The notes beneath the pieces were generated by a model, which had not been told where the DNA came from, ran no database searches, and saw only the letters and a program-made list of their open reading frames with translations. Shown piece after piece: positions 22,311 through 36,110 of a DNA stretch of 36,110 bases (position 1 is its first letter; every line of letters begins with the position of its first letter). Position numbers and translations under genes: made by a program. Origin of the DNA: a virus; IMG/VR virus record IMGVR_UViG_2681812966_000001, positions 1 to 36,110 of that record; one strand, written 5' to 3'.

Positions 22311-22999
22311 CTATCATATCTCCATAAGAATTATGTTGTGTTTCTTTTATTATTTGTGAAAAAGCAATTAAAAAAAAAAAGTTAAAAATTATATTTTTTG
22401 GGATAAAATAACCCCCTACTAAAATTAATTTATTAAGGAGGAAAAAAATAATGATTATATTCTTATATATTATTTTAGTGACTATTTTTTTTAGATTAAA
22501 AAAATTTAGAATAAATTATTATAAATGAGAGAATAAAATTATTCAATATTCTTTTAATTATACATATTTTAGCAATTTAATGGTACTATGCGTGTTTTTA
22601 TTATAAGAATATATTTTTAATGTGTTTAATTTGTGTTTAAAAAAAATGAAAGAAAAAACCAATATACTTTTTTATTAAACTCTATTCTTTTTTTGTTTGA
22701 AAATTTGGCAGGAAAAAAAACAAAAAAATAATTTTATTTTATAATGTTCAATAAAAAAATATGCTTCATGTTTGATTTGATTTAAATAAAAAAGGTAGGA
22801 AAATACATGATTAACGGATTTAAAAAAAATATTATAAAAATATAAGAATATTAAATCAGTATCTCTCATATAATTTATTCATCTCTTTTTATATTCTATC
22901 AAAAAATTCACTTTAAATAATAATATAATATAATCATCACCAATATTCCCTTTATATTCATATAATAGGAGGTTATTTTATCCCAACAATTCAAATATT
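22311..22999. promoter_or_regulatory. Long AT-rich intergenic region; likely early-region terminator plus late-operon promoter
   Basis: About 690 bp with A/T tracts and no credible ORF, directly upstream of packaging/structural genes. Confidence 0.45.
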
Positions 23000-23194
23000 T
23001 TATTTTATCTTTGTAATGTAAATCAGCCTTTTACCATTCACAATATAACCACAAGGATACCTCATAACACTAGGTACACCTTGAAGCACAAGTCCACAAT
23101 CTTTACAGTAAGTTTCATCTTCAAGGAAGCATAAGTTAAGACTCCCACAATGTCGGCAGCTTATCGATTTGTTCCTCTTTTTTGTAGAAGTCAT
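23000..23194 (-). CDS. TFIIB-type zinc-ribbon protein
   Basis: CRHCGSLNL..ETYCKDCGLVL resembles the TFB N-terminal ribbon CPxCGS..xCxxCGLVL. Confidence 0.75.
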   Translation of the reverse strand: MTSTKKRNKSISCRHCGSLNLCFLEDETYCKDCGLVLQGVPSVMRYPCGYIVNGKRLIYITKIK

Positions 23195-23435
23195 AACTTT
23201 TACGATGCTCCTAATTTATAGTATTTGACTATTTTTCTCTATTAAGGAAAAAATATGCAATGAATTACTTCATAATATCCTTGGATAAAAGATATATTAT
23301 AAAATGGTATTTATTTTAGGTCTATTTATTATCCAAAAATTTATAGAGGAGGAAAATAAAATTATAAATAAATGTTTCCCCTCACTATATATGTTCTCAT
23401 AATTTAGAAAAATTTTTAAATATTCTACTAAATTT

Positions 23436-30453: not shown

Positions 30454-31230
30454 CTATCCCTCCTCCTCATCTATTTTTTCAGGACAATTAGCATCAATAA
30501 ATGCTAAAATATCCTCCAAATATTCCTCAGCTATTTCACCACGCTTGACACAACCCTTAGCTTTAAGAGTCATAAGATGTCGGATTGGTTTATGCCCTCC
30601 AATTATAACCTGTTTAGCTATAGATTTAACATAGTTGTTAATAACAGGTTTTGAGTCATCTTCCTCTAATTTATCAGCAGTAGTAAAACCAGACTCAGCA
30701 ACATGAGCCTCAGCTTCAATCAAATCAACATCATTAGATTTGACTTTTTCCCCATTATGAAAATTAGGGTCCAATTCTTCAGCACTAACCTCACCAGCAC
30801 CAATAAGCTCACTAATAGCACGATTAGTCGCCCTAGTCTTTGCAGTACTACGAATAGTATGGCTAGTAGCCTCACCTTTTCCTTTTTCATGCCTACTACA
30901 ACTACCATCAGATTCAACTGTTCTACCATTCGGTAGTGTTGCACGGATACAGTAGTAAGCTTCCCTTGTTTCACCAGTCTTAGTTAATACGAATTCCTTA
31001 CCAATTATCTCCGTATTAACATTGAATGCCCGACCCAATTTAGCCCAAGCACTCTTCTTAGGAAATTTCTTAAAAATAAATCCGTCTTTTGTTTTTTGCC
31101 TATACTCCTGATAATCGGAGTCATTAAGCAATTCTTTACATAATTGTTGATATGCTTTCCATTCTGCCTTAGCAGATTCCACATCAACAACCTTATTAAT
31201 CCCTTCTTGATTTACTACTTCATTAGCCAT
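30454..31230 (-). CDS. Single-strand annealing protein (Rad52/Red-beta-like superfamily)
   Basis: KKSAWAKLGRAFNV, IRATLPNGRTVESDGSCS, STAKTRATNRAISELIGAGEVSAEEL; acidic tail. Start 31230 after AAGGTAGG. Confidence 0.6.
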   Translation of the reverse strand: MANEVVNQEGINKVVDVESAKAEWKAYQQLCKELLNDSDYQEYRQKTKDGFIFKKFPKKSAWAKLGRAFNVNTEIIGKEFVLTKTGETREAYYCIRATLPNGRTVESDGSCSRHEKGKGEATSHTIRSTAKTRATNRAISELIGAGEVSAEELDPNFHNGEKVKSNDVDLIEAEAHVAESGFTTADKLEEDDSKPVINNYVKSIAKQVIIGGHKPIRHLMTLKAKGCVKRGEIAEEYLEDILAFIDANCPEKIDEEEG

Positions 31231-31246
31231 AATTCCTACCTTCTTT

Positions 31247-31411
31247 TTATAAATATCCGTATGTAGGCCCTTTAAAAAGGAAACAAAGACCAATAAAAAT
31301 AAGCATTGAAAAGAGAATAACAGTTATAACTGATATTCTAATTATAATATCCTGTTGAAAAATAGATTCAGCAGGATTAACCCTACCCAACCTTGCAGGC
31401 TTAGGCTTCAA
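31247..31411 (-). CDS. 54-aa single-pass membrane microprotein (not in ORF track)
   Basis: TTG start after GGGAGGAG, overlapping upstream stop; IIIRISVITVILFSMLIFIGLCFLF transmembrane segment. Confidence 0.6.
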   Translation of the reverse strand: MKPKPARLGRVNPAESIFQQDIIIRISVITVILFSMLIFIGLCFLFKGPTYGYL

Positions 31412-31930: not shown

Positions 31931-32113
31931 ATGGTAATGGTAAAGTATACATCTAAAATAAGCAAAGGAAGTAGTGAAAGAGATTCTGCAAGATTAATAA
32001 TCCCGCAAGGGATTAGAAAATTATTAGAAATTGATCCTGGAGATTCTATTGATTGGATTGTGAATATTGATGATAAAGGTATTAAAGTTTCAGTGCAAAA
32101 AGCTTCAGTATAA
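31931..32113 (+). CDS. AbrB/MazE/SpoVT-type transcription regulator
   Basis: SKISK..ARLIIPQGIRKLLEIDPGDSIDW; only credible plus-strand gene, divergent from early operon. Confidence 0.9.
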   Translation: MVMVKYTSKISKGSSERDSARLIIPQGIRKLLEIDPGDSIDWIVNIDDKGIKVSVQKASV

Positions 32114-33415: not shown

Positions 33416-33615
33416 TTAAAAACCTCCAAATTTAAGATATATGAAGTATTTTAAGGCTTTTATTAATATTCCTAACCCTAAACCTCCAAATAAACCAGTA
33501 AGGAATCTTAACCAATTATTACTTAACCTACACCCATATAATTGTGTTAATCCATCAACAAATGCAGGAATAATAATATTGGTTTCCTATGACAAAAAAG
33601 GTTTAAAATATTCAT
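33416..33615 (-). pseudogene. DUF2085-type membrane protein remnant with internal deletion and frameshift
   Basis: MNILNLFCHRKP joined out of frame to IIIPAFVDGLTQLYGCRLSNNWLRFLTGLFGGLGLG..; the central CARC-containing part typical of DUF2085 is missing. Confidence 0.75.
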
Positions 33616-33683
33616 ATCATAAACACCTTAAAAAAACATACTTCTATTTAATAATTATTATATTATGTTAATAATATAATTTA

Positions 33684-34214
33684 TTATTTATTTATTCTCT
33701 CCCTATATGCTTTCATAACCTCTCTAAATTTCTCTGACTTGTTTTCTCCAGGAACATTTTCTAAATGCTCCATCATAGATAATGAAGTCTTAATATTCAA
33801 TTTCTCGGTTTTGAATGTATAATCCTCTATCTTATCATGATATAGAATGAAAATATAATCAAATAATTCCTTCATAACCTCCTTCTCAGAAAGCCCTGAA
33901 TGATTCAATTCTGACAATGCATCCATGCATTTATCAAATATTTCCTCCTCCTTATAGTAAACTTCAGTACTACAAGAATAACCCATTCCTCCGAATATAC
34001 TACTACACATATAACCAAAACTTAATTGTTCGGAATGGGTTAAACCATGTTCATACCCATATTTCTGAGCATAAACATTCCACAAACTAGAAACATCCTC
34101 ATTATAATAAGGTATTCCTCTTTCTTTTGCATATTCTTCTAATTCTTCATAATTTATTGAAGAATCAATATTTTCTAATTCCTTGTTTTTAAAAAACATA
34201 ATATTAACCACCAA
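33684..34214 (-). CDS. Acidic hypothetical protein with possible C-terminal RHH DNA-binding motif
   Basis: KLNIKTSLSMMEHLENVPGENKSEKFREVMKAY resembles RHH. Confidence 0.7.
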   Translation of the reverse strand: MVVNIMFFKNKELENIDSSINYEELEEYAKERGIPYYNEDVSSLWNVYAQKYGYEHGLTHSEQLSFGYMCSSIFGGMGYSCSTEVYYKEEEIFDKCMDALSELNHSGLSEKEVMKELFDYIFILYHDKIEDYTFKTEKLNIKTSLSMMEHLENVPGENKSEKFREVMKAYRERINK

Positions 34215-34218
34215 AAAA

Positions 34219-34252
34219 AATAAGAAAGGATCTAATTAGATCCTTTCTTATT
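34219..34252. terminator. Perfect 34-bp palindrome (terminator hairpin or operator)
   Basis: AATAAGAAAGGATCTAA/TTAGATCCTTTCTTATT, followed on the minus strand by a T run. Confidence 0.6.
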
Positions 34253-34264
34253 AAAATTTTAAAA

Positions 34265-35056
34265 TCATCTCCTTTTTATATCCTCAATAATCATTTCATT
34301 TAGCTCTTTTTCACAAATATTGTTTATCTCTTCAAGAGAGTAACATTCAAGAATTTGCTCATAATTATTTGCAGCATCCCTGATGTATGATTCATCACAG
34401 TTTTTCATAAGCTCCTGTTTTATGAGGTCCTGATAATTAGTGTAAACCTCTTTGTCTATTATCTTTTGTCTTACAAATATTTTCTCTGCATCTTCAAGCA
34501 TTTCTTTTATAACTGGTTCTTTCTGTTCAAAGTCATAGTTTTCATCAAACCAATCATAATCAACTTCTCGGATAATAACGTTTTCACCATATTTGCAAAT
34601 ATAATTTCCTTCCCCACTCCAGGTTGCATCAATATCTTCTGCTAGTTCATCTAGCAAATCATTATCAAGGACAGTATCTGCAAACTTGAATGTGAGTTTT
34701 GCATTAAGCAATACATTATCTTCTGAATATTTTTTGACTTCATCAATGTTCATTTCTAATTGTGTTCCTCCATTGATAAGGAGAGTATAACTCTCCCTAT
34801 CAATAGTAATGGATTCTTCTGCAAAATTTGTTAAAAATTTAACAAATTCGTAATCTTCCATAAAAGCTATTTCCAATTTCTCAATATCTTCTTCCTGCCC
34901 CTCAAAGTAAGCACTATCTAAATGGCTTTGAGGTTGATTCATATCATCATAGAATTTTATACCATTATCATCATCATATAATTCATCCACGTAAGCATAG
35001 CCAGCAAAACTAGCTGTACCATACATACATTCAAATTCAATGATATCAGGACTCAT
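34265..35056 (-). CDS. Highly acidic hypothetical protein; candidate anti-defence factor
   Basis: 263 aa D/E-rich; ATGA-coupled to the AcrIII-1 fusion gene. Confidence 0.8.
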   Translation of the reverse strand: MSPDIIEFECMYGTASFAGYAYVDELYDDDNGIKFYDDMNQPQSHLDSAYFEGQEEDIEKLEIAFMEDYEFVKFLTNFAEESITIDRESYTLLINGGTQLEMNIDEVKKYSEDNVLLNAKLTFKFADTVLDNDLLDELAEDIDATWSGEGNYICKYGENVIIREVDYDWFDENYDFEQKEPVIKEMLEDAEKIFVRQKIIDKEVYTNYQDLIKQELMKNCDESYIRDAANNYEQILECYSLEEINNICEKELNEMIIEDIKRR

Positions 35057-35976
35057 AAAGAAGCCCCCTTTCCTTCCTTAACCTCCACTTTTAATGGAAC
35101 TAAAGTAGCTCCATCTGGGAGTACAGTAGCTCCCTCTTCAAGTCTAGGCCCAGTGTACTGTGCGATATACACAGTATCACCTGGTTTGACATGAATAGTA
35201 ATCCTATTCATGTCTAATCCTACCATATGAGCCACGTCAGCGTGGCCCATAAAATTAACGAAGTCCTTATTTTCAAGGACTTCGTCAAACTCTTCCCAAG
35301 AAATTTGCTGAGAAGAGATGTCCACATTCGGGTTATCTAAGAACCCGAATGTGAATACATTGCCTACATAAACTGTAGGCTCTGTTGATGATGAGTCATC
35401 GTCTGACTCATCAACTTCTAAAGAGAGTTTTTCCTCTCTCACGATAAAATCAGTGAGAGAGATTAACTCTCTTTCCCTGTTGAGATGTATATCATACATC
35501 TCAGCGAGTTTAAAAAACTCGCTTCCAACAGCTTCCTTAACTCTTAAGACCTTAAGGAAACAGTTTAAAATATTTTCTTCTGTTACTCTATCCTTCAAAA
35601 AGGAATAGTAACAGAAGAAAATATCACTATTATAGCACATTTCTGTACTATAATAGCAAATTTCTTTTCTGATATCCGGCTTCACCCCTTCGATGAAGTC
35701 GTCTTCACAGAGTTCTGTAAAGAACTCTGATTCGTCTTCAACTTTTGCAAGTTGAAGAAGATCATAGTGTTCACAATGGTGAACACATTCCTCAAGTGCA
35801 TAGTTAATAAACCATGCACGAGGATTTTTGATTTCTCCTCCTTTATCGAAAGAGAAATCAAATCCCTCAAATTCAACGTCAAATACGGTGTGGACGTAAC
35901 CGTCCACATCGTCTTCTTTACCGAAGAAGCTGTCTCCAGCTTCTTCAATAATTTTATGATTTTTGATATTTAACAT
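35053..35976 (-). CDS. acrIII-1: Fusion protein: unknown acidic N-terminal domain + AcrIII-1 (DUF1874/STIV B116) cA4 ring nuclease
   Basis: aa 201-300: VYVGNVF..F, ISWEEF, NFMGH, NRITI, GDTVYIAQ, RLEEG occur in the same order as the SIRV1 gp29 motifs (VYLANAFS, SIGH, NRVEI, RLEEG); His245 codon at 35242-35244. Confidence 0.85.
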   Translation of the reverse strand: MLNIKNHKIIEEAGDSFFGKEDDVDGYVHTVFDVEFEGFDFSFDKGGEIKNPRAWFINYALEECVHHCEHYDLLQLAKVEDESEFFTELCEDDFIEGVKPDIRKEICYYSTEMCYNSDIFFCYYSFLKDRVTEENILNCFLKVLRVKEAVGSEFFKLAEMYDIHLNRERELISLTDFIVREEKLSLEVDESDDDSSSTEPTVYVGNVFTFGFLDNPNVDISSQQISWEEFDEVLENKDFVNFMGHADVAHMVGLDMNRITIHVKPGDTVYIAQYTGPRLEEGATVLPDGATLVPLKVEVKEGKGASL

Positions 35977-36046
35977 CCTTTATCACCTTTATCAGATTTT
36001 AAAAAAACTATTTTTTTATCTTTTTGTAATACTATATTTAGTGTTA

Positions 36047-36059
36047 ATAGTATATAAAT
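36047..36059 (-). promoter_or_regulatory. TATA-box promoter of the AcrIII-1 operon
   Basis: ATTTATATACTAT about 70 bp upstream of the start codon; identical to 31830-31842. Confidence 0.6.
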
Positions 36060-36110
36060 ATTTCGGTTTTCATTGAAAAAAAGTGTAGAAAGAAAAAGAA
36101 AAAAATACAT

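Follow-up and report, generated by a model that had tools for sequence, protein, structure and literature searches.

A three-gene operon at one end of an archaeal provirus, recorded in IMG/VR as IMGVR_UViG_2681812966_000001 (36,110 bp, estimated to be 82% complete; the whole record is the window of our analysis), is likely, though unproven, to be a counter-defense operon. The record derives from a tailed provirus of a Methanobrevibacter-like methanogen. The genes, which we call A, B, and C, lie on the minus strand behind a common promoter core (Table 1): gene A encodes a protein with a ring-nuclease domain of the anti-CRISPR (Acr) family AcrIII-1, gene B a very acidic protein, and gene C a conserved protein that ends the cassette. 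We propose that this stretch represents a modular early-gene cassette that tailed viruses of the Methanobrevibacter type have in several versions, composed of the promoter core, an exchangeable cargo, and the terminal gene C, and to this proposal, taken together with the mechanism set out below, we give slightly less than an even chance.

The reading of gene A as an AcrIII-1 fusion, which had been made from the sequence alone in the original prediction, was confirmed. Residues 202 to 285 of the protein match PF08960 (STIV_B116-like/AcrIII-1) with an E value of 6.3e-7 and 29.9 bits against a cutoff of 26, and the C-terminal domain also matches phrog_5063 (1.1e-11) and SIRV1 gp29 (PDB 2x4i, E value of 8.5e-5). 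In the alignment with SIRV1 gp29, H245 takes the place of the catalytic H47, and the PRLEEG stretch corresponds to the QRLEEG loop, with the equivalents of R85 and E88 kept. In AcrIII-1, H47 is the absolutely conserved catalytic residue, its loss in SIRV1 gp29 decreases the cleavage of cyclic tetra-adenylate (cA4) more than 2,500-fold, and a mobile loop (residues 82 to 94) buries cA4 (10.1101/778746). Judged by its sequence, A has a solid claim to a real AcrIII-1 domain with intact catalytic residues, and the domain is apparently active. Since type III-A Cas10 scored above the cutoff in 26 of the 121 genomes sampled from the host family, the Methanobacteriaceae, a type III target for the domain is plausible.

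The remainder of protein A is an orphan. Eight homologs were found, all with similarity limited to the C-terminal third and with other N-terminal domains, so that no homolog covers the first ∼195 residues; this part has no match in Pfam, PHROG, PDB, PADLOC, or NCBIfam and gave no lead in the ESM Atlas. A similarity to the 220-amino-acid (aa) protein of locus L009 (related loci are designated here by L numbers) was dismissed as not significant, as its E value of 0.013 was obtained in a tiny database. The nearest relatives of the AcrIII-1 domain (53 to 59% identity) sit in a different element that has PcfJ and a radical-SAM gene. A second type of AcrIII-1 fusion, in which an N-terminal domain of ∼95 aa is followed by AcrIII-1 and a CxxCxxC tail, is encoded at L020:6001-6633 and L021:6001-6669 (P0002-P0007), where the gene is the third of a rightward operon in an element that is distinct from ours and has PcfJ and a radical-SAM gene.

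Around the homologs, the original prediction of an anti-CRISPR operon held in part: the arrangement of promoter, cargo, and C recurs, and AcrIII-1 stands beside B or C nowhere else. Decisive evidence for an exchange of cargo came from L070, the closest relative of the window. Its promoter and 5′ untranslated region (5′ UTR) are 82.8% identical to those of the window over 145 nucleotides (nt), its C protein is 87% identical, C and the region downstream are 86.1% identical, and the next gene is 82.3% identical, and yet the 1,774 nt that comprise A, B, and a hairpin in the window are replaced in L070 by 585 nt, which encode an unrelated protein of 177 aa. The cargo between promoter and C, A plus B in the window, is B alone in L005-8, L012/13, and genome G220; elsewhere, it consists of genes for 220 and 150 aa (L009-11), six genes of 49 to 131 aa (L014), or genes for 286 and 282 aa (L016). 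Most lineages have C without B and unrelated genes behind the same promoter. The cassette occupies four or five genome positions (after integrase and Cdc6, after tail and lysis genes, before packaging genes, or at the early end), and C closes a cluster of co-directional genes in every context recovered. This architecture, with a conserved terminal gene, variable cargo, and a conserved promoter, matches that of loci combining acr genes with anti-CRISPR-associated (aca) genes.

The promoter predicted upstream of A is supported by a match to the B recognition element (BRE) and TATA box, AAATATTTATATA, at positions 36051 to 36063 of the minus strand. Taken alone, this match is weak, with 2 matches against 0.46 expected; it is conserved in the homologous operons. 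The core of ∼42 nt reads ACCGAAA, TTTATATA, (G/C)TA(G/T)TA, a short variable stretch, and AAATATAGTATTAC. With a 43-nt consensus and up to 10 substitutions allowed, the 36-kb window has no match other than the core, which also occurs once per related locus, except for a second copy in L014. It precedes the first cargo gene in seven operons (the window, L005/6, L009-11, L012/13, and L014/15, and, in weaker form, L008 and L042), with a mean pairwise identity of 0.72 in the core versus 0.50 upstream and 0.37 in the 5′ UTR. An exact scan of IMG/VR with the promoter pattern returned nothing, and a scan of 301 Methanobacteriaceae genomes with two mismatches returned 16 loose matches, against 1 for a reversed control, none of which was tied to C.

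A candidate operator is the conserved segment of ∼25 nt that separates the TATA box from the expected transcription start. We consider this segment (36025 to 36050) a better candidate than the palindrome at 34219 to 34252, which had been put forward as a binding site of C and which we rejected, as the relatives lack it and it belongs to the cargo that was swapped. The core contains no clear inverted repeat (one of 7 bp is found in the window only) and has a ATATAGTA-like direct repeat with a spacing of 18 bp.

Two features were absent from the original prediction, namely, a hairpin followed by eight T residues (T8) between B and C and a tiling of gene A with hairpins, to which we return below. 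The B-C hairpin has a centroid energy of −18.6 kcal/mol (z score of −4.05). In relatives, the B-C spacers measure 4 to 29 nt and lack the hairpin; they keep a run of seven or eight T residues just before the Shine-Dalgarno (SD) sequence of C. The hairpin came in with the A-B cargo, within the stretch that L070 has replaced, and we read it as a probable terminator or attenuator rather than a binding site of C. Transcription in archaea terminates at oligo-T stretches, so the T run before C should lower read-through into C. The strong terminator-like hairpin between B and C, together with an AcrIII-1 link that is seen only once, would also fit three unrelated adjacent genes, the A-B transcript ending at the hairpin and C being expressed separately. 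This is called into question by the distance of ∼13 nt between the T run and the start of C, which leaves no room for a promoter, by the short B-C spacers of the relatives, and by the presence of the same promoter and C on either side of different cargo in seven operons, and we hold such an absence of any functional unit to be highly improbable.

Gene C had been described as an acidic protein of 176 aa with a tail resembling a ribbon-helix-helix (RHH) motif. Since all homologs begin with MFF, we place the start at ATG 34199, which yields 171 aa, rather than at TTG 34214. The isoelectric point (pI) of C is indeed low (4.85); as the median for proteins of this virus is ∼4.9, it is ordinary here, as is that of A (4.37). 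Acidic proteins being the norm in this virus, we rejected acidity as evidence of nucleic acid mimicry. The homologs of C form 19 clusters with 53 to 87% identity, and the C proteins of the promoter-core operons are 35 to 73% identical to that of the window. An AlphaFold2 (AF2) model with a mean predicted local distance difference test (pLDDT) score of 85.8 shows a five-helix N-terminal domain and then a strand (residues 135 to 137), a helix (140 to 147), and a second helix (154 to 169), in agreement with the proposed tail. The whole model matched no solved structure in Foldseek and VIA searches (best Z of 5.1).

The Pfam model RHH_1 did not match the tail of C. Thus, we aligned the RHH_1 matches of Methanobacteriaceae genomes and ran hhalign between this RHH alignment and the C family. 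For the full-length C family, the top local alignment to the RHH_1 sequences coincided with the strand and the first helix of the tail, in register, with a score of 16.3, a P value of 0.017 (to 0.0027), and a probability of 3 to 11%. None of 150 shuffles of the tail columns reached 16.3 (mean, 7.8; maximum, 14.1). Moreover, 22 diverse members keep the pattern hydrophobic-x-hydrophobic-K-hydrophobic-S ... PG ... EKF..L. The predicted fold and this alignment lend modest support to an RHH-like tail, and the odds that C is an Aca-like autoregulator are about even.

C-like domains are also found within longer proteins, on contigs without visible viral genes. These comprise a 516-aa protein with tetratricopeptide repeats (TPR), the C-like domain, and ∼160 aa (L032:913-2463), proteins of ∼372 aa in which ∼185 aa precede the domain (L033-L037), and a 370-aa protein in which ∼190 aa follow it (L030:1432-2544), all from Methanobacteriaceae; one such fusion gene adjoins a Ppx/GppA gene. 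Therefore, the C fold is not restricted to viruses. Paralogous copies of C occur within single elements (L009:972-1484 and L039:1483-2613): one lies just upstream of the integrase in L009/L011, and L039 has two in tandem. Peptide patterns of C retrieved nothing from species-representative genomes, and a profile search of the 301 family genomes then gave 14. In the same genomes, B was present in 6 and AcrIII-1 in 13, and the sole overlap was that of B and C in G220.

As claimed originally, the start of B overlaps the stop of A (ATGA), and the B protein is very acidic, with a pI of 4.05 and 25% Asp plus Glu, making it, jointly with one other, the most acidic protein of the virus. Structure prediction from 68 sequences (AF2) yielded a pLDDT of 96.4 and a predicted template modeling score of 0.91, with an N-terminal module (residues 1 to 96), a beta-alpha module (98 to 200), and a helical bundle (202 to 263). 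Foldseek searches of PDB and BFVD and a VIA search of 48,161 chains gave nothing above noise for this model, the best structural Z being 6.0 and confined to the last 60 residues; the model thus predicts, with confidence, a fold without a solved relative. A profile search of 1.84 billion representatives recovered 74 relatives of B at an E value of ≤1e-3. The family consists of two modules, which also occur alone (positions 1 to 96 as proteins of ∼95 to 110 aa and positions 98 to 266 as proteins of ∼165 to 172 aa), split into adjacent genes, or fused behind uncharacterized proteins of 500 to 600 aa.

Searches by sequence were equally negative. B matched no Pfam, PHROG, PADLOC, or NCBIfam model and nothing in the ESM Atlas. 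Of 68 relatives, none matched a PHROG, and no Pfam family recurred among them (there were five isolated single-member matches). PDB sequence searches found no match for B, C, or the B fusion P0039, and tblastn of B and C against 50,697 GenBank phage records found nothing. Of the proteins and domains in the cargo of the window, the AcrIII-1 domain alone has a predicted activity. We rate the chance that B is an Acr, for which it is a candidate, at about one in three. As B has no known fold, has C as its usual neighbor, and stands beside AcrIII-1 only here, an anti-defense role for it is a guess.

The RNA of gene A is predicted to fold into 24 hairpin loops with 69% of its bases paired, and 311 of its 321 pairs span at most 60 nt. 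Its minimum free energy (MFE) is −415 kcal/mol, compared to −229 ± 7.8 for dinucleotide shuffles (z score of −23.9) and −248 ± 13.8 for synonymous-codon shuffles that preserve the protein and its codon usage (z score of −12.1). Strong hairpins number 14.1 per kb in gene A versus 0 to 2.5 per kb in the 36 other genes of the window; the AcrIII-1 genes of L020/L021 have 1.5 per kb. The N-terminal and AcrIII-1 domains are affected equally; in the latter, conserved codons (FTFGF and GH) pair with variable residues just after them. The stems contain 22 G-U pairs in the sense strand against 3 in the antisense strand, and the sense fold is stronger by 61 kcal/mol (antisense MFE of −354). This asymmetry points to selection on the mRNA rather than DNA palindromes, and we rejected palindromes at the DNA level as the sole cause because of the G-U count. 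Templated quasi-palindrome mutation is an alternative source of the hairpins.

Milder excesses of RNA structure were seen in the cargo and the C gene of L070 (L070:1094-2165; z scores of −11.4 and −8.9, respectively) and in the window in an early gene (30454 to 31293, minus strand; −7.5), B (−5.3), and C (−4.6). Two late structural genes had none (−1.4 and +1.1). In this virus group, early or cassette transcripts may share such excess structure as a common trait. At 37°C, a structured target RNA can activate type III systems up to two orders of magnitude less (PMC8682760); it is therefore testable whether an early anti-CRISPR transcript is shielded in this way.

In the mechanism that we propose, the strong BRE/TATA promoter would fire upon infection or induction, and the AcrIII-1 domain, as a dimer, would cleave cA4 and blunt signaling by the type III-A CRISPR system of the host. 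The hairpins of the A mRNA may protect this early transcript from recognition guided by CRISPR RNA (crRNA) or from single-strand RNases activated by cyclic oligoadenylate (cA). C would be made in smaller amounts, by read-through of the T run, a limitation that the hairpin would reinforce here. Through its C-terminal RHH-like tail, C would bind the candidate operator described above and shut the operon down, as an Aca does. B would probably be a further accessory or counter-defense cargo or a partner of C.

Several points weigh against this counter-defense cassette. The conserved promoter segment could be a plain core-promoter signal (proximal element plus initiator), and TATA-N10-TAGTATT-like shapes also occur at other promoters. 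Only half of the RHH motif, the strand and helix 1, aligns in C, and helix 1 is ∼4 residues short. The hairpin and T8 may largely uncouple C from A-B transcription. The fusions of C-like domains are equally compatible with an Aca and with a module of general use in interaction or regulation. For an Acr, B is large, and elsewhere it is fused to 500-aa proteins. None of the 301 Methanobacteriaceae genomes combines AcrIII-1 with B or C, AcrIII-1 lies within a C cassette in this one provirus only, the element holding its nearest relatives contains neither B nor C, and B-C pairs without AcrIII-1 exist in at least six lineages. Finally, B keeps its link to C-like genes in L017/L019 in a changed order, which suggests that B and C are a functional pair rather than free cargo.

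The main rival takes up this last point: B and C would be a two-protein module with a function of its own outside counter-defense, C being, for example, a regulator of transcription or life cycle and B its partner or modulator, and the AcrIII-1 fusion would have landed between the promoter and B. Such a module would account for the position of B directly upstream of C in the window, L005-7, L008, L012/13, and G220, and for the loci nearest to the window by terminase and portal (L017-19), where a distant C-like gene of 220 aa lies upstream of B or of a B fusion. It would also suit the C paralogs that adjoin integrase and Cdc6, the joining of C-like domains with TPR and further domains on contigs that lack recognizable viral genes, and the lack of any second link of AcrIII-1 to B or C. 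On the other hand, C occurs in most lineages without B, which unrelated genes replace behind the same promoter; the cassette varies in genome position as accessory genes do; and the clean swap between close relatives is typical of accessory genes with a fast turnover. On this evidence, we regard an independent B-C module as somewhat unlikely.

An accessory gene set at a variable location in a provirus, with its own promoter and a terminator-like element and with small membrane proteins as downstream neighbors, could also be a "moron" that protects the lysogen by superinfection exclusion, as a toxin-antitoxin pair, or as a new defense system. C would then be a regulator or antitoxin, and AcrIII-1 would keep the type III system of the host from harming the lysogen. 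However, PADLOC-DB (at an E value of ≤0.01) and NCBIfam gave no match for A, B, C, and six proteins of related loci (other cargo proteins, a B fusion, the 532-aa partner, and two C-domain fusions), although a new defense system might well lack such a match, and none of the proteins is basic or toxin-like. Typical RHH antitoxins (ParD, CcdA, and RelB) carry their motif at the N terminus, unlike C, in which the RHH-like motif is C-terminal. A protective role of this kind appears very unlikely to us.

For the counter-defense cassette, the closest precedent, by analogy, would be the csx20-aca14 operon of Pasteurella multocida, in which Aca14, an Aca of the RHH type, represses the operon of the ring nuclease csx20 (PMC13551039). 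Both have a strong promoter with a conserved DNA element, variable cargo including a cyclic-oligoadenylate ring nuclease, and, in last place, a conserved small regulator or candidate regulator of the RHH rather than the helix-turn-helix type. The likeness is one of architecture. In contrast to that operon, ours belongs to an archaeal virus and has a BRE/TATA promoter, its C protein has 171 aa with a large helical N-terminal domain and the RHH-like motif at the C terminus, its conserved promoter element lacks clear inverted-repeat symmetry, and repression by C is putative.

Compared with AcrIII-1 itself (SIRV1 gp29; PDB 2x4i and 6scf), A has a domain at residues ∼200 to 300 that scores above the Pfam cutoff and keeps the equivalents of H47, R85, and E88. 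It differs in that the domain sits behind the orphan region of ∼195 aa, whereas stand-alone frames in the host family have 93 to 124 aa and the nearest relatives of A carry other N-terminal domains and a Cys-rich tail. It also differs in the RNA hairpins that tile the gene and in the predicted early-type promoter before it, acrIII-1 of SIRV2 having been reported as a middle gene (PMC11065993). In viruses of Sulfolobales, conserved early regulatory sequences have been used to find anti-defense genes (PMC11065993). There, as here, a conserved sequence around a strong BRE/TATA core marks accessory, mostly unannotated small genes, and large Acr fusions with domains of no known function were reported as well (PMC11065993). 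The host phylum, the type of virus, and the motif are different, and our motif is tied to one cassette ending in C instead of many single genes. Aca8 of these viruses is a winged helix-turn-helix protein (PMC11065993), unlike what is predicted for C.

Table 1. Positions of the cassette elements and of the adjoining gene remnant in the window
Feature	Position	Strand	Description
Promoter core	36025-36067	-	BRE-like ACCGAAA, TATA box TTTATATA (36051-36058), conserved ∼25-nt segment ending ...AAATATAGTATTAC
Predicted 5′ UTR	35977-36024	-	SD GGTGAT at 35982-35987, read from the sequence
Gene A	35053-35976	-	307 aa; orphan N-terminal domain plus AcrIII-1 C-terminal domain
Gene A, orphan domain	35422-35976	-	About residues 1-185, then an acidic Ser-rich linker; without homolog
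Gene A, AcrIII-1 (DUF1874) ring-nuclease domain	35077-35379	-	About residues 200-300; H245 and RLEEG loop
Gene B	34265-35056	-	263 aa, pI 4.05; start overlaps stop of A (ATGA)
B-C hairpin	34213-34252	-	15-bp perfect stem, 4-nt loop, T8; between B and C, at the 3′ end of the A-B cargo
Gene C	33684-34199	-	171 aa, conserved terminal gene; SD GGTGG at 34208-34212
Gene C, tail	33693-33812	-	Strand-helix-helix, residues ∼130-169 (AF2)
DUF2085 membrane-protein gene remnant	33430-33683	-	Downstream of the cassette; ∼140-nt internal deletion versus L070

Nearly all genes of the window are on the minus strand. From position 36110 to position 1, they comprise A, B, and C, a membrane protein, an AbrB/MazE-like gene (plus strand), early genes, a ParB-methylase, the small and large terminase subunits, the portal, a protease, the capsid, a tape measure protein, baseplate J, and a tail fibre gene truncated by the window edge; there is no integrase within the window. 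Weak matches at the DNA level lead to Methanobrevibacter viruses, and a relative of the terminase was found in a metagenome-assembled genome of Methanobacteriaceae. The counterpart of the DUF2085 gene in L070 is intact (114 aa); since ∼140 nt have gone from its middle in comparison, the gene of the window is probably dead.

The only clear gene on the plus strand (31931 to 32113) encodes a 60-aa protein of the AbrB/MazE type (PF04014, E value of 8.7e-5), which resembles small genes in the vicinity of C cassettes (L009, L012, and L043) as well as the "putative MazE antitoxin" of MSTV1 and may be a regulator of the lysogeny switch. A stretch of ∼1.1 kb without an open reading frame of at least 90 aa (22311 to 23435, G+C content of 0.21) precedes the packaging genes and might function as an origin, as a pac site, or in regulation; in L017-19, a similar gap comes directly after the B gene.

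A survey published in 2024 gave four Acrs and one putative Aca for archaeal viruses (PMC11065993), and our literature search turned up no description of an anti-defense locus in viruses that infect Methanobacteriales, which are the predominant methanogens in the rumen and the human gut. The most far-reaching interpretation would make C and its promoter the first Aca-like anchor for methanogen viruses, the cargo (the B family, the 177-, 220-, and 150-aa proteins, and the small genes of L014) a new reservoir of anti-defense proteins, and the hairpin tiling a new counter-measure at the RNA level; we think it unlikely that all of this is right. The conserved promoter and the terminal gene C can serve as bait for guilt-by-association searches in viruses of gut methanogens, with several cargo families already in hand. 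In the hairpin-tiled AcrIII-1 gene, the structure of the transcript has perhaps been selected as a protection against RNA-guided type III immunity, which can be tested. If this were true, an early anti-CRISPR transcript would be hidden both from recognition by type III crRNA and from cA-activated single-strand RNases.

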